DNA of 64,000 nt. Source: Gammaproteobacteria bacterium. GTDB lineage: Bacteria > Pseudomonadota > Gammaproteobacteria > UBA4575. A program made the position numbers and the translations under genes. The notes under the pieces are model-generated. The model saw nothing but the letters and a program-made list of their open reading frames with translations. It ran no database searches and was not told the DNA's origin. Location of the stretch: positions 911,869 through 975,868 of the forward strand of contig JAWPMW010000001.1 of assembly GCA_033344735.1 (NCBI GenBank). The letters are read 5' to 3'. Shown in pieces: positions 30,101 through 59,910 of this stretch (positions are counted from its first letter, which is position 1; each line of letters opens with the position of its first letter).

Positions 30101-31614
30101 CGCGCATCTTTCATCAATATAGCAGTTGAGTGATATGTTCTAGGAATTGTTATCGAATCAACAATTCTCCAGCTATCTGTTTCTGGAGTATATATTTCTG
30201 ATTCAAAGACAGCGCCGAAGTCAGTAAAATTAAATGCGCTTGTATTTCCACCAACTACAATCACTTCACCATTTGGCAAGGTCACTGAGTTACTGTATGC
30301 ACGTGGAAAAGTCATCGGCGCACCTTGTGTAATAACAGGTGTAGGACCATTCAGGTCAACAAGATGCACATTAGTGTTAAGGACTGGTGGGGTCTCGCGT
30401 GTGTCTGAACCACCAATTAAAAGAACTTTACCTACATCATAAGTAACTACATTTCCCCACATTCTTGCGCGATTACCTGTAGGTTGTCCCAAATCTTGGT
30501 TTGCAGTGTCATCTATGGGATCAAAAGAATGCAAGGTCGGTGTCGGTCCACCATGAAATACTCTGCCATTAGGTTGAACTGCTAAAAGAGCATACCACTC
30601 CATATTTCCGCCGCCGCCTTGGATATTATTATGCTCTTGCAATAAAGTTTGCATACTAACGTTTGGCGTCCTGATCCAAGAGTTTAAATCCGGGTCATAT
30701 TTTTCAGAGCGATTGCCCGCACCTCTTGCAAACGTTGAAAATATTTGATTATTTGGCAGCGTTATATTTGTTCCATACCATCTTTCATCAAACATGTCCG
30801 GTAATGGCCCCCACGTTAAAGTATTTGGATCAAAACTACTTGTACGTGCATCTTGAGGATTTCCACCTGACGCAACTATGACGCCATTTTCTAAAGTAGA
30901 TACACCAGTACAGAACATATCGTGAAAATTATTGTCAGTCGTTTGAAAAGTATTATTTGATGGATCAAAAACAGCTGAATGTGTATAAAAATTTCCCGCA
31001 GGAAAACTATCCGGCTCACTAGCCGACCACGTCAATATACGTCCATCAGTTAATGTAGCAGCGTAAATAGCAATATGAGGCCAATCAATTACTGGTCCCC
31101 ATTGGCCCATTTCTTTCAGTGTGGAGAGATCACCATTTAGTGCACCATCGGCTGGAATCGCCTCAAATCCTCCACCAGCAACTCTATATTGGACGTCTAA
31201 AAATCCATTTGTACCTTTAGAAAAATATTCAACACGTAATTGATATACACCAGGGTTTAAAAACAATTGCCCACCTACCGTAATCGGTGCATGCAAGCCA
31301 TCATTATCAACAATAAGATTGTTATCAATTAAAAGTGCCGAACCATCATCAGAAGTAGTTTGAAATTCATAAGTTCCAGCTGTAGTGACTGATATTTGAT
31401 TTGTAAAAACTAAACCGAAGGTATCAGTTTGGGACGTCACGTTTAGAGAAATAGTATCGTTGGTACCTGTTGCTATAGGACTTAAAGCAGTAAAATCTGG
31501 CAATTCATCATAATCTCCATCGTACACACTGTAGTCGAACTGTGAATATGCTGTTGAGCAAAATACGATTAACAACAGTGTAAAAGCTGAAGTTAGTCTA
31601 ACTAATTGTGACAT
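24154..31614 (-). CDS. Giant secreted multidomain protein (2486 aa): PA14, galactose-oxidase-like copper radical oxidase, TSP3 Ca-binding repeats, Ig-like domain, CBM-like module, YVTN beta-propeller, di-haem cytochrome c peroxidase domain, TSP3 repeats, CBM-like module, 5 tandem Ig-like repeats, C-terminal CBM-like module
   Basis: Signal peptide. Copper radical oxidase active-site residues conserved (HDMFC235TG, ERWY280, RTY494H495S, TTHH580). DxDGDGxxDxxDAFPNDP thrombospondin-type-3 repeats in three blocks (about 29515-29690, 28500-28790 and 26470-26650). YVTN propeller (LVYVTNKKDATISV). Di-haem CCP domain with CASCH (27296-27310) and CTSCH (26907-26921). Tandem 95-96-aa Ig-like repeats (APYSFTWNGATEGAHSLTA). 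Confidence 0.85.
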   Translation of the reverse strand: MSQLVRLTSAFTLLLIVFCSTAYSQFDYSVYDGDYDELPDFTALSPIATGTNDTISLNVTSQTDTFGLVFTNQISVTTAGTYEFQTTSDDGSALLIDNNLIVDNDGLHAPITVGGQLFLNPGVYQLRVEYFSKGTNGFLDVQYRVAGGGFEAIPADGALNGDLSTLKEMGQWGPVIDWPHIAIYAATLTDGRILTWSASEPDSFPAGNFYTHSAVFDPSNNTFQTTDNNFHDMFCTGVSTLENGVIVASGGNPQDARTSSFDPNTLTWGPLPDMFDERWYGTNITLPNNQIFSTFARGAGNRSEKYDPDLNSWIRTPNVSMQTLLQEHNNIQGGGGNMEWYALLAVQPNGRVFHGGPTPTLHSFDPIDDTANQDLGQPTGNRARMWGNVVTYDVGKVLLIGGSDTRETPPVLNTNVHLVDLNGPTPVITQGAPMTFPRAYSNSVTLPNGEVIVVGGNTSAFNFTDFGAVFESEIYTPETDSWRIVDSITIPRTYHSTAILMKDARVFSAGGGACGNCDANHLDAQIYSPPYLYNNDGSLATRPVITNAPSQAGAGDEITVSASADTQSFSMVRLSATTHHLNTDQRVVPVSSIDNGDGTFTLTMFSNPNVLIAGNYWLFAMNGDDTPSIGRTIQILRDPQSPGDSDGDGVPDSEDAFPNDPTETTDSDGDGVGDNSDAFPNDPTETKDTDGDGIGDNSDPTPYILPTVSITAPAANAIFTEDDAITITADAADSDGNITSVDFYDGAVLLGTDTTAPYSFIWNGATEGAHILTADATDNDGAIATSVPVSIVVEEGSGNNGGGNTELALLANAAVLSGAFELSPDNQFIQVPQSVVPAYDFSESAGSAEFTFNVTTPGIYQIEATVQATDDTSDSFYVRVDGAPGTPYLWDTEIQNTFTPLLIINRGETDPVAVDLSAGNHVVTLYHRESGTQLSELKLILVQANGPVDSDGDGVIDTEDAFPNDPTETVDTDGDGVGDNADAFPNDPAESADTDGDGVGDNADAFPNDPTETADSDGDGYGDNIDSTPTGGSNLANLPTAPRNSTTLIVETSTGADRIWNVNPDNNSVSVTSEAGNLIQEIPVGLNPWSLAKAPNANLVYVTNKKDATISVINTQTLVVEQTISLPFGTQPHGIVFDSLGSNYYLVLEATAHVEARNAVTHAVIASTQLTGTPRHIAMTYDDSRLLVTNFITPPIPGESTLVVDTQNGAAEVFVIDPPSMSLTNTIALSYDNRFISESQGPGMPNYLNAPVISFDNQNGFIPSKKDNVDSGLLRGKPGMTFDTTVRANTSRIDLTTETEDSVNISIDFDNASVATGAAITGNSRYLLVALETSRELGVFDIVNNFEVMRLPTGRAPQGVALSTDSSIAYVHNFMDRSISRFDLTEMIETDLPALNLLSPVNVVGGEQLTSDVFLGKQLFYDAADDRLALDNYMSCASCHNEGDSDGRVWDISAFGEGLRNTISLQGHGAGHGRLHWSSNFDEVQDFEGQIRDLSAGTGLMSEADFTATSDTLGIPKAGLSADLDALAAYVNSLTEIPANPYAVAAVDMTAEAIAGEIVFNNSGCTSCHTGILLTDSEQALLHDIGTIDTASGQRLGSTLDGFDTPTLLGIFKTAPYLHDGSAQTVAEAISAHNTVTLSSTELDQLSAYLEQASFIDSDGDGVLDTEDAFPNDPTETQDTDGDGVGDNSDVFPNDPTETQDTDGDGIGDNADETPFGDTGLEVLEQAAQDAVIFGAFALSPDNQFIEVPQNIEPAYDFGISAGYAEFTFNVVTAGTYQIEATVLANDDTSDSFYIRVDGVPNTPYLWDTEIQNTFTPLLIINRGETDPVTVNLSAGEHVVTFYHRESGTQLSNVKLILDQPSQNVAPTVGLTAPIANATYTVGDAISLTADATDPGGSIISVEFYDGATLLSTDVNAPYSFIWNGASLGAHSLTAVATDNEGAATTSAIVNISVNQPIPNIEPTVNLTAPSDNASFVFGNAITLIADASDSDGTVTSVEFYDGAILLSTDTTAPYSFTWNGAAEGAHIVTAVATDDDGDVSVSGDVNITVTPPPNVDPTVAITAPAANATFTVGDAINITASASDSDGSITSVDFYDGAILLSTDTTAPYSFTWNGATEGAHSLTAIATDNEAATTTSAAININVNTPAANVDPTVAITAPAANATFTLGDAINITASASDSDGTVTSVDFYDGATLLSTDTTAPYSFTWNGATEGAHSLTAVATDNEAATTTSVAIDITVTVPANVDPTVVITAPAANATFTVGDTINITASASDSDGSVTSVDFYAGTTLLSSDITAPYSFTWNGATEGAYSLTAVVTDNEAATTTSAAVSITVEADTGGGPEVLDLPASSASLSGAFVLAANGQYIHVPESFGDYYSFTPSTGSAQFTFNVTTAGLYQIEADIFANSFGSDSFFVQVDGGPSTPYLWDTGQHYSSFVPTLVTNRGESGAVTLNLTPGQHVVTFFLREDNTQISGVRLNLIQAF
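24600..26050 (-). repeat. Five tandem in-frame 285-288-bp repeats encoding Ig-like domains inside the giant gene
   Basis: Near-identical DNA units start at 24670, 24955 and 25243 (caagct[ag]t[ga][ca]gcaccttcagtcgcaccattccaagt), with further copies upstream. A separate pair of about 400-bp CBM-encoding duplications lies at roughly 26055-26460 and 28800-29200. Confidence 0.7.
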
Positions 31615-33737: not shown

Positions 33738-34049
33738 ATGTCTAAATTCGACAATGTTTCCATTGTTAAAGAAGCAAATGTTTACTTTGACGGGCAAGTC
33801 ACTAGCCGTTCAGTGATTTTTCAAGATGGCTCTCTCAAAACTCTCGGTATAATGTTACCTGGCGAGTATGAGTTCAGTACCGATGACAAAGAGCTAATGG
33901 AAATCACCATAGGCTCTCTAAAAGTACTCCTGCCGGGCAGTGATTGGAAAAATATCAACGCTGGAGATAGCTTTGAAGTTCCAGCAAATTCAAAGTTCCA
34001 ATTAAAAGTCTCAAAAACGACAGATTATTGCTGTAGCTTTATTAAATAA
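33738..34049 (+). CDS. ppnP: Pyrimidine/purine nucleoside phosphorylase PpnP (YaiE, UPF0345)
   Basis: About 100 aa. [13 protein letters not shown]...[15 protein letters not shown] matches the cupin-like YaiE family. Confidence 0.75.
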
Positions 34050-39928: not shown

Positions 39929-40165
39929 ATGATTGATGATCCAAATGACACGCTAACTACTATCGAAGCAAAAGTACTTTGCTTGAGATACGGAATTAAG
40001 AATATTGATGCTAGTAATAGCGTGAAAAAGCTAAGTACGCATCAAGTAGAAGAACGGAACCCAAGTCGCAGCATAACTGTTATAGCAAAAGCACTTGGCT
40101 CAGATAAAGATACCGTAAAGTATACAGAGCAAAATGCTCTCAGAAAACTGAACATTAGCAAATAA
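39929..40165 (+). CDS. Stand-alone sigma-70 region-4-like small protein (78 aa)
   Basis: LTTIEAKVLCLRYGI......ITVIAKALGSDKDTVKYTEQNALRKL parallels RpoD region 4.2 (LTAREAKVLRMRFGI...[26 protein letters not shown]). Confidence 0.4.
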   Translation: MIDDPNDTLTTIEAKVLCLRYGIKNIDASNSVKKLSTHQVEERNPSRSITVIAKALGSDKDTVKYTEQNALRKLNISK

Positions 40166-40353
40166 TCATGATTTTCGAATTGGGCTAACCATATAATTTT
40201 TGGTCAATTAAATTCTAAATAGCATGCCATACAGCCCTATACTAGCGCGGATTATCCGTTTATTCGGAAATTTACCCCAATAAAGCACAGGAATTGGATA
40301 TAGTTTGCCTACAATTTTCAAACTAAACCCAACTACATTTCTATCTAGCTACA

Positions 40354-40677
40354 ATGTCTAGCCAAAAAAATAAAAAAGAACATTTCGCTGTGATTGGTAT
40401 TCCATGGTATTCGGAAAGGTCCTGGAATAAAATGAAGGATATATCGGAGGATCAAGATAATTTCCACGCGTCTTATCAAATATGGTTGGCTCACGCAGAC
40501 AAAAGTGTTGTTATTTTAACCAATCGTGGCAAGCTATTTGAACGCTTGAAAATTGATCCAACGAGTTATTCCTGGTGGTGCAAAAATCAATCTATTCCTC
40601 GCGACAAAGAATCGCGCCGATTGTACATAAAATATTTATTAGAAAATAAAATCAGTCAACAAGAAGCTATTGATTAA
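40354..40677 (+). CDS. hypothetical protein (107 aa)
   Basis: ORF track only, no motifs recognised. Confidence 0.3.
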   Translation: MSSQKNKKEHFAVIGIPWYSERSWNKMKDISEDQDNFHASYQIWLAHADKSVVILTNRGKLFERLKIDPTSYSWWCKNQSIPRDKESRRLYIKYLLENKISQQEAID

Positions 40678-40739
40678 TCATTTAATAAAATGCTGTTATT
40701 TTTATTATCTTTATAAGCAACGAAAATACTTAAAGGAAT

Positions 40740-41447
40740 TCATTCATTTAAAGTCTTTAGCACAGTAATTATCTCTTCTGGAGTTGCTCTATTTTTATAA
40801 TCCGCATCTAAGAATGCATATTCAACCACACCATTTTTAGCAATCACATATGTAACAGCTAACGGCAGCCTATTTTCATTATCACCATTATGAGCATTCA
40901 ATTTAGATGACAAATCGTAATGGTCTACTACATAATTAGGCACGGTATAAGCAAGCTTATACCTATCTGCAACTTTATTTTTGGTATCACTAAGCACCTG
41001 AAATTCAAGCATATGTCGCTCTTTGGTAGACATTGTTTTGTCCGGTAGCTCTGGCGAGATAGCAATAACCTGTCCACCAGCCTGATGAATTTCATTTAAT
41101 TTCTTTTGTATGTGTTGAAGTTGTAAATTACAGTAAGGACACCAACCACCACGGTACCAAACGAGAACCACAGGACCTTTCTCTAATTGATCATATAAAC
41201 TGACATATTTTCCTATAGCATTAACGAGATTGAACTCAGGCGCATAATCACCAACATTTATTGCTTTATCTAGAATTCCTGAATATCTTACTTCATCAAC
41301 CCCATTATTGAAGTCACTCTGCACATCCTCTGGCGCTGTTTCAATGAAATCTTTTACAAATCTATCAAGATCTTCAGACAGACTAGTCGTTGCATAAGCA
41401 ATATTAGAAACACATATAGCTATTAATACCAAAATCAGTTTAGTCAT
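40740..41447 (-). CDS. Secreted redoxin / AhpC-TSA-family thiol peroxidase-like protein
   Basis: Signal peptide. VWYRGGWCPYCNLQL (thioredoxin-fold CxxC, peroxiredoxin/redoxin family). Confidence 0.7.
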   Translation of the reverse strand: MTKLILVLIAICVSNIAYATTSLSEDLDRFVKDFIETAPEDVQSDFNNGVDEVRYSGILDKAINVGDYAPEFNLVNAIGKYVSLYDQLEKGPVVLVWYRGGWCPYCNLQLQHIQKKLNEIHQAGGQVIAISPELPDKTMSTKERHMLEFQVLSDTKNKVADRYKLAYTVPNYVVDHYDLSSKLNAHNGDNENRLPLAVTYVIAKNGVVEYAFLDADYKNRATPEEIITVLKTLNE

Positions 41448-41639
41448 GGATTTTCCACCCGCATAGAAAGCAAGTTAATGAATTTTATGCTGACAAGATA
41501 ACATTGGCACCTTAAAACTTGCAACTTGATAGGTGCAGAATGGTGTTATTCATTTCAATAATTTTTGTAAGCTATTATTCAGAAGAGATATTCCTACTTA
41601 ACAATCAAGAAACACTAAGAGATTCTTTAGGTATAAGCT

Positions 41640-43046
41640 TTAATCTTGATAATTTTGCGAGGCAGATTTTTTAGTACGATACAAACCCCATCTATTTCGT
41701 CGCATCCAAAGCGCTTTTCTGCCTATACCTAATAGTGATGCAAGTTGCTGTTCGCTGTATTCGTGCTGATAGTCTTTAACAATTTTTTTGGTAAACTCTT
41801 CAATAGACATAGGCGCAATTTCGCTTTCGTCCGATAATGTTGAATTTAAATTAGACGCATGATGACTCCTTATATGCTTGAAGTCTTTTATTTTCAATTC
41901 ATCATCTGTGGCTAATATGATAGCCCTTTCAATTGAATTTTCTAGCTCTCTAATATTACCAGGCCATTCATATTCCATTAAATATTCAATCAACTCATTG
42001 TTTGCACTATTAACTTTTCTGCCTAATTTCTTATTGTGCATTTCAATAAAATGATCTACTAATAATACTAAATCATTTGCTCTTTTTCTTAATGGAGGAA
42101 CTAATATCTGTACAACATTAAGTCGATAATAAAGATCTTCACGCATTTTGCCCTTACTAACTTCGTAATGCAGGTCTCTATTGCCCGCTGCAATGATTCT
42201 TATATCAACATTGTAATCTTTATTACTTCCAACAGGTCTAACAATTCTTTCTTCTATTACTCTAAGCAGTTTAACTTGAAGCGAAAGATCCAACTCAGCT
42301 ATTTCATCCAGAAATAAAGTGCCGCCATTAGCTTGTCGTATTAAACCTTCTGTTTCATTCGTTGCTCCGGTATAAGCACCTTTTGCATGACCAAAAAATT
42401 CTGACTCCATCAGCTCCTTTGGAATAGCGCCGCAATTGACTGCAACAAATCTGCCTTCTCTTCTTGGGCTTGCTCTATGAATAGCTTGCGCAACAAGCTC
42501 CTTTCCGGTTCCACTTTCACCTTGTATTAATACAGTTGCTTCACAGGGGCCAACACGAGTAATCAATGACTTCAATTCAATCATCGATTGGCTTTCACCA
42601 ATTATTTCTCTTTTCTGACGCAATGCTACATCTAGGTCACGTTTGAGATTTTTATTTTCTTTTTTAATACTTCTTTCATTGATTACACGTACAACAGCAT
42701 GTAACAAATATGAATCTGTAAACGGACGCAAAATATAGTCTGCTGCACCTAGACGCAACGCTTGAGCTGCACACTTTATAGAAGTATAGCTTGTATATAT
42801 TATAATAGGACATTCCAACTTTTCAGATCTAACTTTTCTAAGTAGATCCAAGCCAGATTGGCCATTCATATTAAGGTCGCTGAGTACCAAGTCGAAATGT
42901 TCAGATAACAGCATATCAACCGCGTTATCTACTTTTCTAACGTGTTTTACATCAAACTGTTCTTCCATGAGAGGTTCTAAGACTGTTTCAGCAAATTCTA
43001 TATCGCTATCAACGACTAAAATTTTATGTACATGCGTAAAACCCAT
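41640..43046 (-). CDS. Sigma-54-dependent response regulator (NtrC family: REC + AAA+ sigma-54 activator + Fis-type HTH)
   Basis: REC domain with acceptor Asp (LVLSDLNM). GESGTGKE Walker A, GAFTGA-like loop (GAYTGA), ESEFFGH, and a C-terminal HTH (LASLLGIGRKALWMRRNRWGL). Confidence 0.85.
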   Translation of the reverse strand: MGFTHVHKILVVDSDIEFAETVLEPLMEEQFDVKHVRKVDNAVDMLLSEHFDLVLSDLNMNGQSGLDLLRKVRSEKLECPIIIYTSYTSIKCAAQALRLGAADYILRPFTDSYLLHAVVRVINERSIKKENKNLKRDLDVALRQKREIIGESQSMIELKSLITRVGPCEATVLIQGESGTGKELVAQAIHRASPRREGRFVAVNCGAIPKELMESEFFGHAKGAYTGATNETEGLIRQANGGTLFLDEIAELDLSLQVKLLRVIEERIVRPVGSNKDYNVDIRIIAAGNRDLHYEVSKGKMREDLYYRLNVVQILVPPLRKRANDLVLLVDHFIEMHNKKLGRKVNSANNELIEYLMEYEWPGNIRELENSIERAIILATDDELKIKDFKHIRSHHASNLNSTLSDESEIAPMSIEEFTKKIVKDYQHEYSEQQLASLLGIGRKALWMRRNRWGLYRTKKSASQNYQD

Positions 43047-43251
43047 AATGATTTACCTTGATTCTTTAATTTTTTTCTTGTCTTGTACTTTAGCTATTAA
43101 TGTCATAAAAGTGGGGAGTAATGATTCATTACAATATTTTAAGAAATTTATATAAATCAAATCTACTACTTGAAATTAACACCCATCATATTTTCAACAA
43201 CATGATCTAATTGATTTATAAAATATCAGTCTTAAAATCCATAATATATAA

Positions 43252-43515
43252 TTATGGATTCAAATCTAATACTTCCTCAATTTCTTCAAAAGGTAGAGAA
43301 GCCTCCTCATTTACTGACTTTACAGTAGCAGCATCACCCGCCTCGAATAAGCACGTACACTTTTCGCTACTTGGGTAAAAATTACTTCTAATATATTTAA
43401 CAGATGTTCCTTTTTCAGAAAATTCATTGCTTTTTTCTATTGCTGCTTTTTGAGCAGCGCCAAGATCTTCCATTGATATACCCGCTAAGTTTCTTTGTAC
43501 GGCAAATATAGGCAT
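43252..43515 (-). CDS. DUF4242-like small protein (87 aa)
   Basis: MPIF..Q......S.EDL..A...........G.......F.....K..CLFEA......K.......PFEEIEEV matches the DUF4242 pattern. Confidence 0.45.
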   Translation of the reverse strand: MPIFAVQRNLAGISMEDLGAAQKAAIEKSNEFSEKGTSVKYIRSNFYPSSEKCTCLFEAGDAATVKSVNEEASLPFEEIEEVLDLNP

Positions 43516-43603
43516 TTCTCACCTCCAATTATTTTTACGTAACAATGTGCCAGATAGAATACTCACTTATCTGGCACATTAAACTACTACAGTATAATTT
43601 TGC

Positions 43604-45055
43604 TTAGTGGGCATGAAAATGTTTTGCGCCTGCCCATGGCGAATCAGTTGTACCATCTTCGATAGATTCTTTACCTTTATATGAACCTCGAACTTTAGTT
43701 GCAGGATGATCACTACCTGTATATGGACTTGACGGATCAACCAGTTTCTCTCTAAATGTGCCTGGCGCATATTCTGTTTGTGCGCGTCCTCGCTTCACAA
43801 GTTCAGGCCTTACATAATCAATAAAGTCGGTGACAGATCCTGGAGTGATAGCATACGCAAGGTTAAACCCATCAACACCGCCGTAATCTACCCATCGCTC
43901 TAACTCATTAGCGACTTTTTCAGGCCCACCAACAAGTACTGGACCAAGACCACCAATGCAACGCTCTTTAATCACATCACGCACGGACACATTTTTTCCA
44001 CCATCTTCAGTTAATGATTCAAGTGTTGTACGCAGAGCATCATTATCTAATGCCTTGAGTGGCTCATCAGGTTCTAATTTAGAGAAATCTATACCAGTCC
44101 AACCACCGTATAGTGCCAACATGCCTTCAGGATTTACATATTGTAAATAATCTTCGTATTTCTGTTGTGCTTGCTCATCGGTTGAGCCCGTCACAACTGT
44201 TAAAAGTGTAAAGATTTTAATTGAACCAGGATTGCGCCCTGCTTCCTTTTCATATTTTCTTATATCATCCGTAACTGTTTTCGAATGCTCAGGGCTAGTT
44301 GTCAAAATGAACATTGCTTCACAATGCTTGGCTGCAAACTGACGGCCACGACTAGATGCACCAGCCTGAAAGATAACCGGGGTACGTTGTGGTGAAGGCT
44401 CGCATAAATGGAACCCTGGAACTTTAAAGTATTTACCTTCATGTTTAATAGGATGAACTTTTGTAGGATCAGTAAATATTCCACTTTCTTTATCACGTTT
44501 AACAGCGTCTTCTTCCCATGAGCCTTCCCATAACTTATACATCACTTCCATATATTCATCTGCATAGTCGTAACGTTCATCATGTGCCATCTGTTGATCC
44601 ATACCAATATTAAGCGCGGCACTATTCAAATATGAAGACACCACGTTCCATGCAACACGGCCTTTGGTAAGATGATCTAGGGTTGATAATCGGCTTGCAA
44701 GAAGATAAGGAGGCTCAAATGTCACTGCAGCGGTTACGCCGAATCCGACATTCTTTGTGGCAGCTGCCATTGCTGCAATTGCGCAAAATGGATCATTAAC
44801 TGGAATTTGTGCTGCGTCTTTAAGCGATGCCGCTGCAGTACCACGGTATACATCATACATACCTTTAACATCAGCAATGAACAAAGTATCGAAAACTCCA
44901 CGTTCAAGCTCAATAGCCATGTTCGTCCAATACTCTATATCATTATATCTTGAAGCCTGGCTATTTGGATGAGTCCACATCCCTGATGATTGATGGCTCA
45001 CACATGTCATATCAAAAGCATTTAAAATAATGCGCTTTTTTGCACCCTTACTCAT
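43604..45055 (-). CDS. Luciferase-like (LLM) FMNH2-dependent monooxygenase, NtaA/SnaA/DszA/DmoA subfamily (483 aa)
   Basis: ILNAFDMTCVSHQSSGMWTHP N-terminal signature of the NtaA/DszA family. TIM-barrel LLM length of about 450-480 aa. Start reassigned to the second Met (MSKGAKKR, AGGAG RBS) because a sigma-54 promoter overlaps the first. Confidence 0.8.
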   Translation of the reverse strand: MSKGAKKRIILNAFDMTCVSHQSSGMWTHPNSQASRYNDIEYWTNMAIELERGVFDTLFIADVKGMYDVYRGTAAASLKDAAQIPVNDPFCAIAAMAAATKNVGFGVTAAVTFEPPYLLASRLSTLDHLTKGRVAWNVVSSYLNSAALNIGMDQQMAHDERYDYADEYMEVMYKLWEGSWEEDAVKRDKESGIFTDPTKVHPIKHEGKYFKVPGFHLCEPSPQRTPVIFQAGASSRGRQFAAKHCEAMFILTTSPEHSKTVTDDIRKYEKEAGRNPGSIKIFTLLTVVTGSTDEQAQQKYEDYLQYVNPEGMLALYGGWTGIDFSKLEPDEPLKALDNDALRTTLESLTEDGGKNVSVRDVIKERCIGGLGPVLVGGPEKVANELERWVDYGGVDGFNLAYAITPGSVTDFIDYVRPELVKRGRAQTEYAPGTFREKLVDPSSPYTGSDHPATKVRGSYKGKESIEDGTTDSPWAGAKHFHAH

Positions 45056-45099
45056 AATTCTCCTACCCTTCTTTGAATTGATGTTATCCAAAGTAGTAC

Positions 45100-45114
45100 T
45101 GCAAATGACATGCC
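45100..45114 (-). promoter_or_regulatory. Sigma-54 (-24/-12) promoter for the LLM monooxygenase operon
   Basis: Minus strand reads aGGCATGtcatTTGCAg, matching the TGGCAC-n5-TTGCA consensus with correct GG-n10-GC spacing. An NtrC-type activator gene lies in the same gene string. Confidence 0.5.
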
Positions 45115-45456
45115 TAGAACATAACTAGTTAAAATATATGGAATATATTATATAGGTACCTCCCTATATGATTCGAAATGACACAAATTATCTTAAATTT
45201 ATTTCACATTGTTTCTATTTGACTCATCATAAAATATTCTGCAGTGCATTTTCATTATTATTATACTTAATGAAACCAATTATGATTACCTAATATAAAT
45301 TCAAGTAACAGGTAAAGTAAGTAAAGAGAACATCTGGAAACACTTAAAACCGCTTTTTAAATTGATAACATATAAACTTATGATAAGTATTGATCATTCA
45401 TTATCTCTATTAAAAGACTCTTACTTACCCTCTATTAGAATCCTGGAGTTGGAATA

Positions 45457-45822
45457 ATGTCAGAGGCTGTAGCCATACTTGGAGCAAGCAATCAACATTA
45501 TAGGCATGCATATAAAGCTCAATTATCATTGATCTCAAATGGACACACTGCCGTTCCAATTAATCCAAAATACGACATCATTGATGGGATTCAGTGTCAC
45601 CCTGATCTAGCATCATGCTCACACAAGATTGATACAATCACAGTGTATGTGCGTCCATTTATCTTATCGAACTTGGTCGCAGACATCATAGAGTCCTCTC
45701 CTGGCCGAGTTATTTTGAACCCAGGGACTGAGGATTCGAATATCATAAAACAATTGCAAAAGGCTGATATTCTAGTTGAAGTGGCCTGTACGCTTGTACT
45801 CCTTCGCACTTCAGAATTTTAA
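45457..45822 (+). CDS. CoA-binding domain protein (YccU-like)
   Basis: VAILGASNQHYRHAYKA...GHTAVPINP matches the CoA-binding (PF13380) N-terminal Rossmann-like motif. Confidence 0.6.
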   Translation: MSEAVAILGASNQHYRHAYKAQLSLISNGHTAVPINPKYDIIDGIQCHPDLASCSHKIDTITVYVRPFILSNLVADIIESSPGRVILNPGTEDSNIIKQLQKADILVEVACTLVLLRTSEF

Positions 45823-46000
45823 TTTTATATAATTTTTCTCAATATCCTAAAAATACTTTGCAAAGAAATATTTAATATATTCCGGCACTGCACTCAAGCA
45901 AAAAATGATTGGATGTGCACACATTAAGATAAATAATTAACATACACTAATTATCTCAAAGCCAAGATTAAGCATGCATCTTCTTTTAAATTGCAGAGCT

Positions 46001-47758
46001 TTAATTTCGCCTTTTTCTTTTCTTAGGATTATCTGAGTTCACCAAGAAAACATTCTCTTGAATCTCTCTACCAATACGTGTGTTACGACGAATCACTTGC
46101 GCAAGAGATGTCTGCTCAATTGAACGTACTTGACGAGGTGACATGCTGTTTTCATACCAGAAGCGGTCACCATCACGCAGCCTTTCAAATTGGTCCTTTA
46201 AAATAGCAAAGAAAACTTCTCCCACTAATGCCCCGGCTACTTTATCTTCTGCGAGGCCACCTACCCAAAGATCAACTTCGTTAACGGTCGTATAAGCTTC
46301 AGCCAACTTTGCTTGTATGTCAGTATTCGATGAAATATCTGCGAAGTTCACAACAGGTGCCAGACCTAATGCGACGCGAGTATCATTATAACTAGCTAAA
46401 CCATGATCACGCCCACGTTGTATATTGAGTGAAGCTAAATCAAACCCTCCATTACCAGGTAGACCAAATAAAAAATTACGAACATCATCAATGATAAGCA
46501 CATCAAGGTCTTGGCAAGCCTGTTTTGCCAGCCCCCTTAATATAGGGTCAATACCACCTTCATTGATAATACTACCGGGAGAGAAGAAAGCATCTCGCAA
46601 GGAGAGATTTCCAAAAGCAATTTCATTACCACTTCGATCCAATCGCAGTATTTGTGGTGAAAGTAAACTATGTCCCAAGCGATATGCAGCAGTAGAAAAT
46701 TCATTACGAATGCTTGCATCAAGATCGGGGTTATAACCACTGTATTCACTTAATGCATTTGGTCCAAGTAGCACGGGTATAAATTCTTTATAAGTAATGA
46801 CCTGCATAAGCGCAGCTACTTTATTACGTGCACGTTGATAAATTTCATCACCGCTTAAATTGGATTGACGTCTAGCAATTCTTGTTGCCAGTCGATTATG
46901 CTCGCGAACAAATAAAGTATGCATAGCTGTGAGTCCAACTTGCTCATTAGCACGCACATCACCTGCCAAGAATAATGTCTCACTTGGACCACCAGCATTA
47001 CTTAAACCCGCAGTATTAAATGGTAGTAGGTTGCCCTCACTGGTTTTTAATTTTCCGGTACCATCTAAAGTACGCAATTCAGCGGCACGCTCATCATCAG
47101 AACCATATACATTAGATGCATCAATCCAGCCGGTGATTTCGTTAACTTGTTGGCGTGGATTATCAGCATTGAGTCCTGTCAGTTCATCATAGTTTGATCG
47201 GTTGAATGGCAGCACCACATCACCCGCATCATTAGGATCAAAAAGCTCATCTCCAGAAGGGATAGCAATGTTAGCAGGTTCTGGTATCGGCACGCCTTCG
47301 GTTAAATCAATATCGTGATCTAGAAATTGGCCCCACTGCCAAAGAAAGTCACTGGCAACATTTGGGGTTTGTGTTGAGATGGCTTGCGCCAATACACTAT
47401 TACTAACGACACGTGGATTGGGTCGTGTTGCTCCTGCTAATGCTGATATGTCATCACTATATGCATTTGGTGCAATGCGAGCCAACTGTGTGTGAGGCGT
47501 ATTCATGTCTGGGACTGCAATATTATTATTCGTTCCATTAATCGAGCGAATAAATACTTCGATGTTATTATTTTTATTGCGTCGATTATGGTCACGTTCG
47601 ATTCGTCGAACAGGAGAAGCATTTCGATCTTGTACGGTTTTATCCGCTTCTTTTAATAATTCGCCACCAGAAAGCCTTTGCCGTTGCTCTCCAATAACAA
47701 CTGTTGATACAAAAAAAGCACCTAATATAATAAAAATAATTATACTTTTTCTTGTCAT
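46001..47758 (-). CDS. Secreted animal-type haem peroxidase (peroxidase-cyclooxygenase superfamily)
   Basis: Signal peptide. LWQWGQFLDHDIDLT distal-His motif, GDVRANEQVGLTAMHTLFVREHNRLA proximal-His region, NIQRGRDHGLASYN, DLWVGGLAEDKV, RDGDRFWYEN. Confidence 0.85.
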   Translation of the reverse strand: MTRKSIIIFIILGAFFVSTVVIGEQRQRLSGGELLKEADKTVQDRNASPVRRIERDHNRRNKNNNIEVFIRSINGTNNNIAVPDMNTPHTQLARIAPNAYSDDISALAGATRPNPRVVSNSVLAQAISTQTPNVASDFLWQWGQFLDHDIDLTEGVPIPEPANIAIPSGDELFDPNDAGDVVLPFNRSNYDELTGLNADNPRQQVNEITGWIDASNVYGSDDERAAELRTLDGTGKLKTSEGNLLPFNTAGLSNAGGPSETLFLAGDVRANEQVGLTAMHTLFVREHNRLATRIARRQSNLSGDEIYQRARNKVAALMQVITYKEFIPVLLGPNALSEYSGYNPDLDASIRNEFSTAAYRLGHSLLSPQILRLDRSGNEIAFGNLSLRDAFFSPGSIINEGGIDPILRGLAKQACQDLDVLIIDDVRNFLFGLPGNGGFDLASLNIQRGRDHGLASYNDTRVALGLAPVVNFADISSNTDIQAKLAEAYTTVNEVDLWVGGLAEDKVAGALVGEVFFAILKDQFERLRDGDRFWYENSMSPRQVRSIEQTSLAQVIRRNTRIGREIQENVFLVNSDNPKKRKRRN

Positions 47759-48232: not shown

Positions 48233-49231
48233 ATGAACTATAATAATATTCCGAAACAGTCTTTAGGTTTTTTCCCAACACCGATTGTCGAACTTTCCAA
48301 GTTAAGCAAAATGTTTGGCGGCCCTAAATTATTTATGAAACGAGATGATAATACGGGTCTTGCATTGGGTGGTAACAAAACCAGAAAGCTAGAGTTTATT
48401 CTTGGAGATGCGTTGGCGTGTGGTGCAGATACTATAATTACTGCCGGAGCAACACAATCAAACCATTGTCGGCAAACTGCTGCCGCAGCTGCAAGTCTGC
48501 AACTTGAATGCCATCTTGTTTTAGGTGGAGAAAAACCTGAAATTATTAACGGCAATTTATTGCTTGATCAAATATTTGGCTGCCATATTCATTGGGCTGG
48601 AATTAATCGCAAGGGAGAAGACATTCCTCAAATTGTTAAACAACTACAACAAGCAGGAAAGAAGCCTTATGTTGTGCCATATGGTGGCTCGAATGAACTA
48701 GGAGCTTTAGCATGTGTAGATGCATTGAAAGAAATTATAGCGCAAAGTCATAACATGAATGAGTCGTTCACACATATCGTTTTTGCCTCAAGCTCAGGTG
48801 GAACACAAGCTGGACTAATGCTTGGCAAGAAGATACTTAATTCATCATATCAAATCATTGGCATAAATATTGATAAAGGAGAAACAGATATGGTTTCTTT
48901 TGATCAATTCATATTGTCTCTTGCAAACAGTACTGCAAATTTCATTGATTTTAATCAAGAATTCTTAGAAGAAGATTTAAATTTAAATTCTGACTATGTT
49001 GGCGAAGGTTACGGCGTGCTTGGTCACTTGGAGAACGAAGCAATTTCGTTGACAGCACAAACAGAAGGAATATTGTTAGATCCTGTTTATACAGGAAGGG
49101 CTATGGGTGGCTTAATTGATATGATCCGAACCGGAAAATTTGACAAGAGAGATAACATTTTATTTTGGCATACCGGAGGCACACCTGCTCTATTTGCTTA
49201 TTCAAATAGATTGAATTCCATGGAATTTTAG
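48233..49231 (+). CDS. PLP-dependent 1-aminocyclopropane-1-carboxylate deaminase / D-cysteine desulfhydrase family protein
   Basis: GGNKTRKLEF PLP-lysine motif and fold-type II PLP enzyme length (332 aa). Confidence 0.8.
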   Translation: MNYNNIPKQSLGFFPTPIVELSKLSKMFGGPKLFMKRDDNTGLALGGNKTRKLEFILGDALACGADTIITAGATQSNHCRQTAAAAASLQLECHLVLGGEKPEIINGNLLLDQIFGCHIHWAGINRKGEDIPQIVKQLQQAGKKPYVVPYGGSNELGALACVDALKEIIAQSHNMNESFTHIVFASSSGGTQAGLMLGKKILNSSYQIIGINIDKGETDMVSFDQFILSLANSTANFIDFNQEFLEEDLNLNSDYVGEGYGVLGHLENEAISLTAQTEGILLDPVYTGRAMGGLIDMIRTGKFDKRDNILFWHTGGTPALFAYSNRLNSMEF

Positions 49232-49294
49232 CATAGCACTGCAGCAGACGAATTTAAATAATTAAATCTTAAAAATAATTTATGAGGAATTTTA

Positions 49295-49705
49295 GTGGAT
49301 AAAATAGAAAGTTATAAAGCTAGTTGCAGTTGTGGAATAATTGAAGTCTCTATGCAAGGAAACCCAAAAGTAAAAGGATTTTGTCATTGCGAAGATTGTC
49401 GAGAACTATTAAATGTACCTTATCATTCTGTAAACGCATGGGATAATAATAATGTTACGGTCTTAAAAGGCAGTGTTTATATTAGAGAATATCAGCACTC
49501 TAAACTTAAAATGAAGAAGTTCTATTGTAGTGAATGTGGAGACACTATTTACAACTCTAATGCTATGGATTGGAAAGTATTTTCACAGTTGTTGATTAGC
49601 AAGTCTTATAGTGGAAATCTACCTAAAGAGCTTCATCCAGAATCCCATTTTTTTTATGACAGCCGTATTATTGATATTAATGATGATTTGCCGAAACATA
49701 GTTAG
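49295..49705 (+). CDS. GFA-family protein (glutathione-dependent formaldehyde-activating enzyme / CENP-V-like)
   Basis: Cys ligand pattern CSCG...CHCEDC...CSECG, characteristic of the Gfa zinc sites. 136 aa. Confidence 0.75.
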   Translation: MDKIESYKASCSCGIIEVSMQGNPKVKGFCHCEDCRELLNVPYHSVNAWDNNNVTVLKGSVYIREYQHSKLKMKKFYCSECGDTIYNSNAMDWKVFSQLLISKSYSGNLPKELHPESHFFYDSRIIDINDDLPKHS

Positions 49706-49822
49706 AAGAGAACCAATCTGAATGAAGGTGTTATTTAGCTCTATACAGCAGGAACCGGCCTCAAGCAGAAATTCGCAACTGGATAATAAAGAAGACAACT
49801 TAGTGATAGAATAACTTTCTTC

Positions 49823-50653
49823 TTGTTTTTATCATTAAAATCAAATAAGAGGTACGCCATTTTGGAAGATCAATCAGTTGACGCTTATAAACCTGCAAAA
49901 ATTGCTGAACTAGTAGAAAATATTGGTGTGACTAAAGCTGTCATGCCTACTGTACCAACGATTATGTTGGGCTTAATGGCAGGTGCTTTCATAGCATTTG
50001 GTGCTATGTTTTACACACTAGTCATGACCAATAACGATATGGGACTAGGTCCCGCTAGATTGCTAGGTGGTCTAGCATTTTCATTGGGTTTGATACTGGT
50101 GCTGGTGGGTGGAGCAGAGCTTTTCACAGGTAATAATTTTATTGTGATGGCATGGGCCGAGAAAAAAGTAACAACGCTTCAGCTGTTAAGAAACTGGTCT
50201 ATCGTCTATATCGCAAATTTTGTAGGAGCTGTTGGAACGGCATTATTAATTTTTTGGTCTGGTGTACTTACTATTGGTGAGAACGCTTTCGCCGAGAATG
50301 CATTAAACATTGCAGTCTACAAAACTAACCTAGACCCCTTACAAGCATTTATTAGAGGTATTTTATGTAATGCACTGGTATGTCTATCAGTTTGGATATG
50401 CTTTGCAGCACGTGATGTAGCAAGCAAAATTTTAGCAATTATTTTTCCTGTCTCAGCTTTTGTTGCATTAGGCTTTGAGCATTGTATTGCAAATATGTAC
50501 TTTATCCCGCTTGGCATGATTCTAAGCGATGGACAAATAGGAATTACTGATTTTATGACAAACATAATTCCTGTAACCGCTGGAAATATAGTTGGAGGGA
50601 GTATATTTGTAGCATTTGTGTATTGGATTGTTTATGTAAGGGATTATAAGTAA
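49823..50653 (+). CDS. Formate/nitrite transporter (FNT) family channel
   Basis: Six TM helices. GGAELFTGNN and L..GNIVGG FNT signature loops. The exact start is uncertain (possible TTG start near 49860). Confidence 0.8.
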   Translation: MFLSLKSNKRYAILEDQSVDAYKPAKIAELVENIGVTKAVMPTVPTIMLGLMAGAFIAFGAMFYTLVMTNNDMGLGPARLLGGLAFSLGLILVLVGGAELFTGNNFIVMAWAEKKVTTLQLLRNWSIVYIANFVGAVGTALLIFWSGVLTIGENAFAENALNIAVYKTNLDPLQAFIRGILCNALVCLSVWICFAARDVASKILAIIFPVSAFVALGFEHCIANMYFIPLGMILSDGQIGITDFMTNIIPVTAGNIVGGSIFVAFVYWIVYVRDYK

Positions 50654-50851: not shown

Positions 50852-51412
50852 CTAAATGTTTAATTCTTGAAGATGCTCAATTAGTGACTTGATATTATTT
50901 CGAGCCGAACCCTCATTAGCCAATCTTAATCTCTCTACCCCTAAGAAAGCAGCATTCCACTTTGCTGTAAAGGGCGTTGTGATTTTTTTATAAAATACTT
51001 CTTTTTTGGTTTCATTTTCCACTAAGGAATATGAAATTATTGTAGTGACTGTCATACTTGCACCAAGTATAGGCTGCTTAACTTCTATTAATACTGCTGA
51101 GAGTGAATAATCACTATTTACTGAAGATCTATTTAGAAATTGCGCATCTGCCAACGAATTAATCATCGCCTGCTTATAATCTTCGTTACTAATTTCTGAT
51201 GTCCATAGTGGATTGGTACTTTTACCTCCGGAGACTGTATCCACTATTAAATTATTTTTTAAATTATCACTTCCTTTGTACTGCCCCCAATCTTCTGAGG
51301 GAATAGTCATATTCTCCATTTTTGCAGGAGAGGCACAGCCGCTTATTAGCAAAATAATTGCAAGAGCTAAAAAGTAAATTATATGTTGATTTTTCATATA
51401 TGATTTATACAC
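50852..51412 (-). CDS. hypothetical lipoprotein (186 aa)
   Basis: Signal peptide plus lipobox LISGC. Confidence 0.4.
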   Translation of the reverse strand: MYKSYMKNQHIIYFLALAIILLISGCASPAKMENMTIPSEDWGQYKGSDNLKNNLIVDTVSGGKSTNPLWTSEISNEDYKQAMINSLADAQFLNRSSVNSDYSLSAVLIEVKQPILGASMTVTTIISYSLVENETKKEVFYKKITTPFTAKWNAAFLGVERLRLANEGSARNNIKSLIEHLQELNI

Positions 51413-54700: not shown

Positions 54701-55901
54701 TTGTGCATGGCGAATTAGTATTTTTGCATAATATCACTTGAATTCGCAGTCTTGTTATTGATTGGAATCTAACTATGATAAGTCTGCATGAAGGATGTAC
54801 TCTTACTTGCCATTCATTTTGTAACGCTACTTATCCGCCTGCTTCAACCCAGTGGAATAAAGGCAGTTGCGGCTGAAAACTTGACGCTAAAGAAACAACT
54901 GTTAGTCATTCAACGATCGAGATCGAAAGCACCCAACCTCACTACTATGGATCGACTGATCTTTGGGTGGTTGGCAATGTTGCTTTCTCCCAAACGAATC
55001 TCTCGATCTTGCATCATTTTAAAACCTTCGACCCTTCTCTCGTTTCACAAGGCACTCGTGAAACGAAAATACTTACAACTTTTTTCTTCTACTGGCAAAG
55101 GAAAACCTGGCCCTAAAGGTCCCAACAGTGATTTGATTAAAGCCATTATCGAAATTAAACAACGCAATCCCAGGTTTGGCTGCCCACGTATTGCACTCAT
55201 TATTACAAATACATTTGGTATCGAAATTAACAAAGATGTTGTGCGAAGGATATTGATGAAACATTATCATCCAAGCCCTAATGACAAAGGCGGCCCTTCT
55301 TGGTTATCTTTTATTGCTAACATGAAAGACAGCTTGTGGAGTATTGATCTATTCTGTTGTGAATCCACTACACTGAAAACGCATTGGGTACTCGTCGTCA
55401 TGGATATCTGGAGTCGACGGATGATTGGATGTTCAGTCAATAAAGGACCTGTCGATGGCCCAACTCTTTGCAGGATGTTCAATCAGATCATATCTAATAA
55501 AAGTGCACCTCATTATATAAGTACGGACAACGACCCTCTTTTTCAATTTCATCGATGGAAAGCCAACCTTAGAATTCTGGAAATTGAAGAAGTGAAATCC
55601 ATTCCCTTTACGCCAATTTCACACCCTTATGTCGAACGAGTGATTGGCACTATAAGGCGCGAGTGTCTGGACCAGACATTATTTTGGAATGAAGTTGATC
55701 TGCAGAATAAACTGGATGACTTCATCGACTACTATAACAATCATCGCGTGCATGCTTCGCTTAATGGCAATGTGCCCGCCAATTTTGGCGAAGAAAGATT
55801 GCAATCAGTTGCGAATCTAAAAAAGTTTAACTGGAAAACACTTTGTCGCGGACTGGTTCAACTCCCAATCCCAGCTTAAATTACCAATTCGCCATGCACA
55901 A
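54701..55901 (+). mobile_element. IS481-like insertion sequence (about 1.2 kb) with 20-bp imperfect terminal inverted repeats
   Basis: Left inverted repeat TTGTGCATGGCGAATTAGTA (54701-54720). Right inverted repeat reverse complement TTGTGCATGGCGAATTGGTAA (55881-55901), matching at 19 of 20 positions. TGT termini. A single DDE transposase ORF. No obvious target-site duplication. Confidence 0.7.
54788..55879 (+). CDS. DDE transposase (rve integrase-core domain)
   Basis: D (VVMDIWSRR)...D (YISTDNDPLF)...E (HPYVERVIGTIRRE) catalytic triad spacing. C-terminal YNNHRVHASL. Confidence 0.85.
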   Translation: MKDVLLLAIHFVTLLIRLLQPSGIKAVAAENLTLKKQLLVIQRSRSKAPNLTTMDRLIFGWLAMLLSPKRISRSCIILKPSTLLSFHKALVKRKYLQLFSSTGKGKPGPKGPNSDLIKAIIEIKQRNPRFGCPRIALIITNTFGIEINKDVVRRILMKHYHPSPNDKGGPSWLSFIANMKDSLWSIDLFCCESTTLKTHWVLVVMDIWSRRMIGCSVNKGPVDGPTLCRMFNQIISNKSAPHYISTDNDPLFQFHRWKANLRILEIEEVKSIPFTPISHPYVERVIGTIRRECLDQTLFWNEVDLQNKLDDFIDYYNNHRVHASLNGNVPANFGEERLQSVANLKKFNWKTLCRGLVQLPIPA

Positions 55902-59598: not shown

Positions 59599-59910
59599 TT
59601 ATTCATGTGACTCTACATACAACTTAAGATGAAATCTTAATCTATCAATTTCTTCAATTAAATCTAAAGCTAACGCGACTCCTTCGATATTGATGCCTAA
59701 GTCATTCCCAAGTCTAATTGCAGCTTGGACACTCTTTAAATGAGTCGCGGAAAATTTCCAGTTTTCATAATTTTCGCCGTTCGGCTCTATTACACCTTCA
59801 TCCACTAACTTTATTATCAAATCTTCTTCACTGTTACTGACCAAACATAATTCGCTTAATGTAAATTCAACCTGTTCATCTAACAATTCACCAACATGGA
59901 GTTTTTTCAT
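59599..59910 (-). CDS. cbpM: Chaperone modulatory protein CbpM (MerR-like)
   Basis: About 100 aa. Located immediately downstream of cbpA. LSELCLVSNSEEDLIIKLVDEGVIEP matches CbpM. Confidence 0.7.
   Translation of the reverse strand: MKKLHVGELLDEQVEFTLSELCLVSNSEEDLIIKLVDEGVIEPNGENYENWKFSATHLKSVQAAIRLGNDLGINIEGVALALDLIEEIDRLRFHLKLYVESHE

Follow-up and report, generated by a model that had tools for sequence, protein, structure and literature searches.

Among the sulfur gases of biological origin dimethylsulfide (DMS) is the main one; it is relevant to climate, and the flavin-dependent monooxygenase DmoA is one of the few enzymes known to remove it. The enzyme has been assigned chiefly to actinobacteria, alphaproteobacteria and betaproteobacteria (PMC7039863); Methylophaga isolates that degrade DMS are devoid of it (PMC6548844). 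Its partner reductase, DmoB, has so far not been pinned down genetically (PMC9259527), and our literature search found no paper pairing dmoA with sigma-54 and nothing on dmoA regulation. The nearest described regulatory system is that of Pseudomonas SfnR, which acts on sfnFG and the msu genes; according to the references cited in PMC13352529 and PMC8234197, the SfnR systems described so far depend on sigma-54, and sulfate starvation is what they respond to.

The DNA analysed here, called the window, is a 64-kb stretch from an uncultured gammaproteobacterium. We read its dmoA locus, with a probability of about 0.75, as a sigma-54-dependent DMS monooxygenase module, in which a known enzyme is governed by a form of sigma-54 control that has not been described before. 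The locus provides a first testable model for the switching on of dmoA, in which a dedicated activator acts on a promoter with two operator-like dyads, and it places dmoA, mtoX and formate dehydrogenase together in one gammaproteobacterial lineage. The advance is incremental rather than conceptual.

The dmoA gene and its product

43604..45055, minus strand: dmoA, large subunit of an FMNH2-dependent, luciferase-like dimethylsulfide monooxygenase, 483 aa (TIGR03860 and PDB 6AK1)

The predicted protein matched NCBIfam TIGR03860 over all model positions (1–422 of 422) with 519.7 bits against a cutoff of 279.7, and in a PDB search it matched DmoA of Hyphomicrobium sulfonivorans (6AK1) over the full length (E 5e-246), the two proteins being equally long and ~74% identical from end to end. 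The bit scores, which give a ranking and not a tree, placed DmoA (820) ahead of LadA (476; E 1.7e-141), HcbA (347), riboflavin lyase (305) and DszA (251), with NtaA (191; E 4.8e-55), EmoA (145), SfnG (58) and SsuD (41) at the lower end. The earlier note had suggested a DmoA-like enzyme and proposed a check of its placement; by this ranking it groups with DmoA and not with NtaA, SsuD or SfnG. When the FMN- and substrate-binding residues listed for H. sulfonivorans DmoA in PMC9259527 were compared, 19 of the 20 were identical, and the only change (G231, Ser in the window copy) falls in a column that is variable among 18 orthologues. Judged by its sequence, the protein is an orthologue of H. sulfonivorans DmoA, although its host is a gammaproteobacterium of ~38% GC and not an alphaproteobacterium.

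Promoter and upstream dyads of dmoA

45059..45064, minus strand: ribosome-binding site AGGAGA ahead of the real ATG (45055..45053)
45100..45115, minus strand: sigma-54 type -24/-12 promoter AGGCATGTCATTTGCA, with GG at 45114-45113 and GC at 45102-45101, conserved in relatives
45170..45184, minus strand: dyad GTGTCATTTCGAATC, proximal predicted upstream activator site, 8/10 matches
45211..45225, minus strand: dyad GAGTCAAATAGAAAC, distal predicted upstream activator site, 8/10 matches to GTTTC-N5-GAAAC

The promoter element has the correct GG-N10-GC spacing and matches six of the eight remaining consensus positions; it is situated 45 nt upstream of the dmoA ATG (45055), and the transcript start is predicted at ~45089. 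Since this position falls on the TTG (45091) at which the listed reading frame opens, the real start of dmoA is taken to be the ATG at 45055. The earlier note had likewise chosen the second Met, preceded by AGGAG (45064..45060), and its choice agrees with the related loci L006, L007 and L008, where the orthologues begin at the equivalent ATG and conservation starts there. The overlap it had described between the -24/-12 element and the listed start was not found, the element ending 9 nt upstream of the TTG.

Counted alone, the promoter match is not statistically unusual, as TGGCACGN4TTGCW with up to two mismatches occurs 14 times in the window against 8.8 expected, and three sites of the same quality as AGGCATGTCATTTGCA exist in the 64 kb, only the dmoA one preceding a gene. 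This count, together with the presence of sigma-70-like hexamers upstream, would suit the explanation that the match arose by chance, that dmoA is transcribed from an ordinary sigma-70 promoter and that the activator controls other genes. We consider this extremely unlikely. The sigma-70-like hexamers are not enriched (22 against 24.1 in shuffled sequence), whereas the 16-mer is kept as AGGCAyGyCAATTGCA in L006, L007 and L008 amid otherwise diverged intergenic DNA, and the combination of promoter and dyad is seen again in front of five or more further module genes. These three loci come from uncultured gammaproteobacteria; in the related locus L003 the -12 half of the element is present.

The two dyads are centred ~87 nt (proximal) and ~128 nt (distal) upstream of the predicted transcript start and are 41 bp apart. 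Relative to the -24/-12 element the proximal dyad is found at -62 in the window and at -60 to -62 in L006, L007 and L008, and the distal one at -103 and at -102 or -103, respectively, while GTnTC-N5-GAnAC dyads have a background rate of 0.17 per 240 nt. Both window dyads are weaker than those of the relatives. It is the conservation of the 16-mer in three loci and the matching offsets of the two dyads that lift the promoter above chance, so the sigma-54 promoter claimed for dmoA in the earlier note is now backed by related loci and by upstream sites of activator type.

Sites of the quality of AGGCATGTCATTTGCA upstream of dmoA were confined to this gammaproteobacterial clade; weaker ones occurred in a small number of more distant loci, among them those of pseudomonads. 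In contrast to the window, where dmoA has a sigma-54 promoter and a dedicated activator, the Hyphomicrobium loci showed no such site ahead of dmoA. One genome has its dmoA ~286 kb away from the activator gene; even there a -24/-12-like site is present, with one dyad ~340 nt upstream, farther than in loci of the adjacent type. No rpoN was found among the ORFs of the window.

The activator and its proposed regulon in related loci

41640..43046, minus strand: sigma-54 enhancer-binding protein, 468 aa, with receiver, AAA+ domain and a C-terminal stretch resembling a Fis-type HTH (Pfam)

The activator matched Sigma54_activat (PF00158) with 233.9 bits and Response_reg with 75 bits; its C-terminus gave no Pfam HTH match, and the stretch reads as a Fis-type HTH. 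The AAA+ domain appeared complete in the translation (GESGTGKE, LFLDEI and a GAYTGA loop, the last being a natural variant of GAFTGA). The best structural matches in the PDB were 4L4U (E 7e-85), 1NY5 (E 4e-84) and 3DZD (E 2e-79), and the protein shares the receiver, AAA+ and DNA-binding architecture of the NtrC1/NtrC4-type activators of Aquifex. It differs from them in its degenerate receiver, where the equivalents of NtrC D11 and K104 (in the numbering of the NtrC reference sequence) are Ser and Arg. Independently of that reference, one metal-binding Asp is missing in 53 of 54 orthologues and Arg replaces the conserved Lys in 18 of 55, while the next-closest homologues, used as an outgroup, have the canonical receiver residues in 65 of 65. 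A further difference is the lack of a histidine kinase gene in any examined locus, with no kinase gene in the region of the window or in L003, L006–L008, L083 and L084. Because a metal-binding Asp and, in this copy, the conserved Lys are lost and no kinase gene lies nearby, the activator is probably not driven by a classical phosphorelay.

Upon a presumed signal, the activator would bind as dimers to the two GTnTC-N5-GAnAC dyads, oligomerise and, by ATP hydrolysis, open the sigma-54 holoenzyme at the -24/-12 element, thereby switching on dmoA together with the downstream DUF4242 gene.

Orthologues of the activator (76–83% identity) are located within the same module in L003, L006, L007 and L008. 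In the relatives (L001–L008 and L083–L085), the same pairing of promoter and dyad also precedes genes for a flavin reductase, a periplasmic binding protein, a porin and ribBA, and in some loci a crp-type regulator gene; the window holds only dmoA, the DUF4242 gene and the activator gene of this module. A PF01613 reductase gene with its own -24/-12 element and dyad was detected in L003, L006, L007, L008, L083 and L084, which makes this co-regulated reductase a candidate for DmoB. A wider proposal, possible but advanced here only tentatively, is that the orphan activator, with its degenerate and probably phosphorylation-independent receiver, acts as the master switch for methylated-sulfur genes throughout the lineage, in a sigma-54 regulon that would comprise the DMS monooxygenase, flavin reductase, riboflavin synthesis, binding protein, porin and, after ribBA, the sfnG–msuE pair, with a Crp/FNR-type relay in some genomes; the PF01613 reductase would then be DmoB and the CxC-containing DUF4242 protein an accessory factor of the enzyme.

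In function the activator appears analogous to SfnR of Pseudomonas; the earlier note had drawn this parallel, and the related loci strengthen it. Both systems join a sigma-54 activator with flavin-dependent luciferase-like monooxygenases for methylated sulfur compounds, and in relatives of the window the orthologous activator gene has as neighbours sfnG (equivalog, 556.8 bits, cutoff 383) and a gene for an FMN reductase of msuE type, the promoter and dyad signals likewise being close by. These signals stand before ribBA, upstream of sfnG, and may control sfnG as well. Unlike in the SfnR system, the target here is dmoA, whose product would cleave the C–S bond of DMS to release methanethiol, and the window activator has an N-terminal receiver, although a degenerate one, whereas SfnR is shorter and is not known to carry this domain.

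The Peripla_BP_6 binding protein and the porin of the relatives, each with its own sigma-54 promoter, would be superfluous for a freely diffusing gas, so the range of inducers or substrates may exceed DMS. Taken further, they could mean that the physiological substrate of the DmoA-like enzyme is not DMS but another thioether or a polar compound that enters through the co-regulated porin and binding protein. Homologous binding proteins are encoded near DmoA-like genes in many other bacteria, group C flavin monooxygenases show little conservation at the substrate site (PMC8234197), and in one study methanethiol was not detectable with recombinant DmoA homologues (PMC9259527). We nevertheless regard this explanation as quite improbable, given the ~74% identity over the full length to a purified DMS enzyme and the agreement in binding residues, the window mtoX, which fits methanethiol as the product, and the neighbourhood of dmoA in H. 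sulfonivorans itself, which contains the same sfnG, ribBA and PF01613 flavin reductase genes as the relatives of the window.

Methanethiol oxidation genes and the neighbours of dmoA

4817..6196: mtoX
40740..41447, minus strand: secreted AhpC/TSA-type redoxin with WCPYC motif and signal peptide (Pfam AhpC-TSA, 94.5 bits)
43252..43515, minus strand: DUF4242/SCO4226-like small protein, 87 aa, with conserved CxC (Pfam PF14026, 56 bits)
43544..43580, minus strand: intercistronic hairpin between dmoA and the DUF4242 gene, 13-14 bp stem AATGTGCCAGATA ... TATCTGGCACATT, no U tract

The mtoX gene reported in the earlier note was verified as an NCBIfam MtoX equivalog (759.8 bits, cutoff 650). It belongs to a full operon with SCO1 and MauG partners, ~38 kb from the dmoA module, and formate dehydrogenase subunit genes stand beside it; a GFA gene and a gene for an FNT channel are also present in the window. 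Upstream of mtoX neither a -24/-12 element paired with a dyad nor any other sign of control by the activator was found. In the module as we read it, DmoA would convert DMS with FMNH2 and O2 to methanethiol and formaldehyde, methanethiol would be passed to the periplasmic methanethiol oxidase MtoX, and the C1 units would proceed to formate and to the formate dehydrogenase. The FMNH2 would have to be supplied by a reductase whose gene lies beyond the window; in relatives the regulon includes a PF01613 reductase.

The same machinery could instead serve a sulfur-scavenging regulon like Pseudomonas SfnR/sfn-msu, in which the sulfur of DMS and dimethylsulfone is directed to biosynthesis and not to carbon and energy supply through MtoX and formate dehydrogenase. 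The activator of the relatives, adjoining sfnG and the msuE-type reductase gene after a ribBA with sigma-54 promoter and dyads, is in line with this, as is the sulfate-starvation response attributed to SfnR systems. However, the window contains neither sfnG nor msuE and does contain the full mtoX operon and formate dehydrogenase, the product of DmoA is methanethiol and not sulfite, and a Tara Oceans data set contains relatives of the activator, which points to sulfate-rich sea water where scavenging would be needless. On balance, we consider scavenging unlikely and retain the DMS monooxygenase module as the preferred reading.

No NAD(P)H:FMN reductase encoded with dmoA was found in the 64-kb window, in agreement with the earlier note: tblastn of the window with PF01613-type and MsuE-type queries gave nothing with E below 2, and Pfam scans revealed no reductase family among the non-nested ORFs that reach 100 aa or more, four excepted (24154..31614, 33738..34049, the 50852..51412 region, excepted as having no hit, and 59599..59910). 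As seen in the window, the enzyme is incomplete.

The same-strand string of monooxygenase, DUF4242, NtrC-type activator and redoxin genes that the earlier note described exists in this order; the redoxin, absent from all related loci, is a same-strand neighbour outside the conserved module. The DUF4242 gene, which follows dmoA here as a point of difference from the H. sulfonivorans locus, adjoins dmoA in 8 of 11 close gammaproteobacterial loci, whereas the other dmoA loci fetched (L012–L082) all lack it at this place. Its product shares PF14026 with the nickel-binding protein SCO4226 (PDB 4OI3), but the similarity to the PDB chain is very weak (E 0.23), and C53 and C55, which at least 98% of 113 homologues retain, form a conserved CxC where SCO4226 has one Cys. 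Assignment as an SCO4226 equivalog was rejected (NF033706, 22.8 bits against a cutoff of 125), leaving membership of the broad Pfam family. The 88-nt spacer between dmoA and the DUF4242 gene folds with -23.3 kcal/mol (z = -3.4); its hairpin is conserved in L003, L007 and L008, several pairs being kept through changes on both sides (in four sequences only), and it may act as an mRNA stabiliser or a processing site.

The monooxygenase and its module

Among all PDB chains, the luciferase-like monooxygenase (LLM) matched most strongly the dimethylsulfide (DMS) monooxygenase DmoA of Hyphomicrobium sulfonivorans (6AK1; E 5e-246, 820 bits, residues 6–478 versus 2–475), with 73–74% identity to the H. 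sulfonivorans protein. Lower matches were LadA (476 bits), HcbA (347), riboflavin lyase (305), DszA (251) and NtaA (191), and the weakest were EmoA (145), SfnG (58) and SsuD (41). Nineteen of the 20 binding residues listed for DmoA (PMC9259527) are identical in the window protein, the exception being G231, which is replaced by Ser in a column that is variable among 18 orthologues. The earlier note had named clustering with a non-sulfur clade as the contrary outcome; on the PDB score ranking no such affiliation was found, and by its sequence the LLM belongs to the DmoA clade. The genes of the region, all on the minus strand, are as follows.

43604..45091, minus: LLM gene (dmoA) in the ORF-track frame; Bac_luciferase (Pfam), NtaA/DmoA family TIGR03860, 519.7 bits (cutoff 279.7)
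43252..43515, minus: SCO4226-like/DUF4242 protein, 87 aa (Pfam)
41640..43046, minus: activator, 468 aa; Response_reg + Sigma54_activat + AAA_lid_14
40740..41447, minus: AhpC/TSA redoxin, 235 aa, with signal peptide (Pfam/NCBIfam)

The same-strand string had been described as comprising all four genes. The LLM, DUF4242 and activator genes stand as the only module members in the window, while the redoxin is a local neighbour only, since the module flanks show no synteny between the window and its relatives; it also has only distant kinship to both redoxins of the mtoX (methanethiol oxidase) operon. As these flanks differ in every related genome, the dmoA module may be mobile. Elsewhere in the window, integrase core (rve) domains in an ORF at 54788..55879 (plus) suggest an insertion sequence, and a single ORF of 2486 aa occupies 24154..31614 (minus).

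A CoA_binding_2 gene (45457..45822, plus) lies divergent from dmoA and is a recurrent neighbour of it, homologues also adjoining dmoA in three related loci (L001, L005 and L008). Beyond it, at a short distance upstream of the module, 46001..47758 (minus) encodes a 585-aa bacterial protein that belongs to the animal haem peroxidase family (Pfam 531 bits) and for which NCBIfam gave no match.

Predicted promoter and start codon of dmoA

The sequence upstream of dmoA (...ttctAGGCATGTCATTTGCAgtactacTTGgataac...aagggtAGGAGaattATGagtaag) contains the following elements.

45115..45100, minus: −24/−12 (sigma-54 type) element; GG at 45114–45113, GC at 45102–45101, spacing exactly 10 nt
45225..45211 and 45184..45170, minus: two dyads; distance to the start of the 16-mer −24/−12 element, 103 and 62 nt

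The element had been thought to overlap the ORF-track start of dmoA; it stops 9 nt ahead of that TTG (45091). The predicted sigma-54 transcript start would lie at approximately 45089, on the TTG itself, thus the true dmoA start is ATG 45055. The later start codon of the earlier note was thereby upheld: AGGAG stands ahead of this ATG, the orthologues begin at the equivalent Met, and nucleotide conservation among them sets in at the same position.

Allowing at most two mismatches, the consensus TGGCACGN4TTGCW gave 14 matches in the window against 8.8 expected, which is not significant alone. When GG and GC were required, three sites of equal quality were found in the 64 kb, that of dmoA being the only one before a gene. 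The dmoA match by itself is not beyond chance, and therefore comparative evidence was sought. A second good match (TGGCATTCAAGTTGCA; 48498..48513, minus) lies within a PLP-enzyme gene; it has no dyads, stands 740 nt ahead of the haem peroxidase gene, and is probably due to chance.

A DmoA alignment was used to scan species-representative genomes and yielded 80 loci; the closest of them (82–96% protein identity) belong to MAGs that bear the label uncultured Gammaproteobacteria or Thiotrichales. In four of these closest loci (L003, L006, L007 and L008) an activator orthologue (76–83% identity) is likewise present. The dmoA upstream regions have diverged from that of the window (mean column identity 52%), with the 16-mer kept as AGGCAyGyCAATTGCA. 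Farther upstream, two more conserved blocks form imperfect GTnTC-N5-GAnAC dyads, whose offsets from the 16-mer are 102–103 and 60–62 nt in L006, L007 and L008, at a background rate of 0.17 dyads per 240 nt in these sequences. This comparative evidence, drawn from aligned sequences, is decisive for the predicted dmoA promoter.

Within 400 nt upstream of dmoA, sites of sigma-54 quality are present in the gammaproteobacterial clade of the window and weaker ones in a few more distant loci, for example in pseudomonads; the Hyphomicrobium loci yielded none. In Azomonas and pseudomonads (L068, L069, L070 and L082), the DmoA-like genes (63–66% identity) have CGGCAC-N5-TGCA-like −24/−12 sites 54–87 nt upstream of the LLM gene, and binding-protein homologues occur nearby in L068, L070 and L082. 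The gene neighbourhood sfnG-ribBA-reductase-dmoA is preserved in H. sulfonivorans and other alphaproteobacteria, but upstream of dmoA no −24/−12 element was found there. A window-wide search for further −24/−12 sites and for the dyad gave only chance-level matches within coding regions, and no sign of activator control over mtoX; in 40000..46500, Rfam matched no known RNA.

The activator and its putative regulon

The closest structural relatives of the activator are NtrC1/NtrC4-type proteins, and the Walker A, Walker B and GAYTGA loop motifs could be read in its translation. A protein with 100% identity to it is recorded from a gammaproteobacterial MAG contig at NCBI (2.40 Mb). Its receiver domain was aligned with 120 homologues, namely 55 orthologues (at least 60% identity) and the 65 next-closest proteins (48–52% identity). 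The equivalent of NtrC D11 is lost in 53 of 54 orthologues, being Ser in the window activator, and Arg replaces the conserved Lys in 18 of 55, the window activator among them; all 65 next-closest homologues are canonical at all five receiver positions. Judged from this alignment, the receiver domain is unusual and degenerate. Since, in addition, no histidine kinase gene was present in any locus examined, we infer that the activity of the protein is probably not under classical phosphorelay control.

In related loci (L003, L006–L008, L083–L085), the paired signals seen at dmoA, a −24/−12 element with GTTTC-N5-GAAAC dyads 60–125 nt upstream, precede four further genes: a PF01613 flavin reductase gene divergent from the activator gene, the gene of a Peripla_BP_6 binding protein (475–480 aa) immediately downstream of the activator, a porin gene, and ribBA, which is followed by an sfnG equivalog (556.8 bits, cutoff 383) and an msuE-type FMN reductase. 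In the L011 genome the activator cluster lies approximately 286 kb from dmoA, which still has, some 340 nt upstream, a −24/−12-like site with one dyad.

Alignment of the dmoA upstream region with L001 and L002, the closest dmoA contigs, revealed no homology. Five close loci have no activator gene next to dmoA; in them a Crp/FNR-family gene lies divergent upstream of dmoA, and it has itself a conserved reverse-strand −24/−12 element (TGGCTTnCTTATTGCA) and GTTTC-N5-GAAAC dyads at −81 and −124, while a conserved AACTGATTnCAATCAGTGT box stands ahead of the orf101-dmoA unit.

Crp-type gene −24/−12 element with dyads, and AACTGATTnCAATCAGTGT box, in the five loci
L001: 8990..9136
L002: 8535..8712
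L004: 1856..2002
L005: 7411..7426
L010: 8909..9078

A simple swap of regulators in L001 and L002 was dropped as an explanation because the Crp-type gene carries the −24/−12 element and the same dyads. Together with the AACTGATTnCAATCAGTGT box, these signals suggest a relay in which the activator would act on the Crp-type regulator and the latter on dmoA.

Of 11 close gammaproteobacterial loci, 8 have the DUF4242 gene alongside dmoA; it was absent from the remaining loci fetched with dmoA (L012–L082). Between the two genes lies a hairpin of 13–14 bp without a U tract (43580..43544, minus; −23.3 kcal/mol, z = −3.4), retained in L003, L007 and L008 with several compensatory changes. The protein is far from the nickel-binding SCO4226 and gave only insignificant matches to solved structures; at least 98% of 113 homologues share its CxC motif. 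In two loci without dmoA (L084, 4516..4853; L085, 277..614), a near-identical dmoA promoter and dyad directly precede the DUF4242 gene, which gives the appearance that an intervening dmoA was lost. In other bacteria, remoter CxC subfamily members stand alone or come first, before aldehyde dehydrogenase and acetyl-CoA synthetase genes (L088, 6001..10201; L090, 6001..9881), which weakens the case for a dmoA-specific partner. From these gene contexts, the DUF4242 gene appears to be a regulon member not specific to dmoA.

According to references cited in PMC13352529 and PMC8234197, SfnR is a sigma-54 activator of sfnFG in Pseudomonas. The control logic proposed here resembles that system, as the earlier note had suggested; it differs in that the target is dmoA and the window activator bears a degenerate receiver domain. 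No paper in the literature searched named dmoA and sigma-54 together. The published host range of DmoA consists mainly of alpha- and betaproteobacteria and actinobacteria (PMC7039863), and DMS-degrading Methylophaga isolates are without dmoA (PMC6548844). The original observation was thus confirmed and its interpretation supported: the enzyme is known, its proposed control is of a known type in a new form, and the lineage is poorly known.

The flavin reductase and the pathway context

As previously stated for the window, a flavin reductase is missing: none was found by tblastn, and no reductase family appeared in Pfam scans of nearly all ORFs with a length of 100 aa or more, the 2486-aa ORF being among the few outside these scans. 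The tblastn search of the 64 kb likewise did not find the binding protein, ribBA, sfnG, msuE, the porin, orf101 or the Crp-type regulator. A reductase remnant was sought in the 205-bp spacer 43047..43251, where nothing aligns with the reductase-activator spacers of the relatives. The gene of DmoB, the flavin reductase partner of DmoA, is still uncharacterised in Hyphomicrobium (PMC9259527); the main value of the analysis lies in a testable regulatory model and a co-regulated DmoB candidate, which is located in the relatives and not in the window.

The presence of mtoX was corroborated, 4817..6196 being an MtoX equivalog (759.8 bits, cutoff 650). Its operon, within 1391..12139, is complete, with SCO1/SenC, a MauG-like peroxidase and two TlpA/AhpC-type redoxins following. 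The same region also encodes an SCO1 protein, a pterin-4a-carbinolamine dehydratase and formate dehydrogenase subunits (7671..12139). The gene content fits a route in which DMS would be converted to methanethiol and formaldehyde, methanethiol to sulfide, formaldehyde and H2O2, and formaldehyde via formate to CO2.

A GFA-family protein and an FNT (formate/nitrite-family) channel are encoded at 49295..50653 (plus). The PLP enzyme ahead of them is closest to CuyA/D-cysteine desulfhydrase models, all below cutoff, and the whole stretch (48233..50653, plus) could be a small sulfur/C1 unit.
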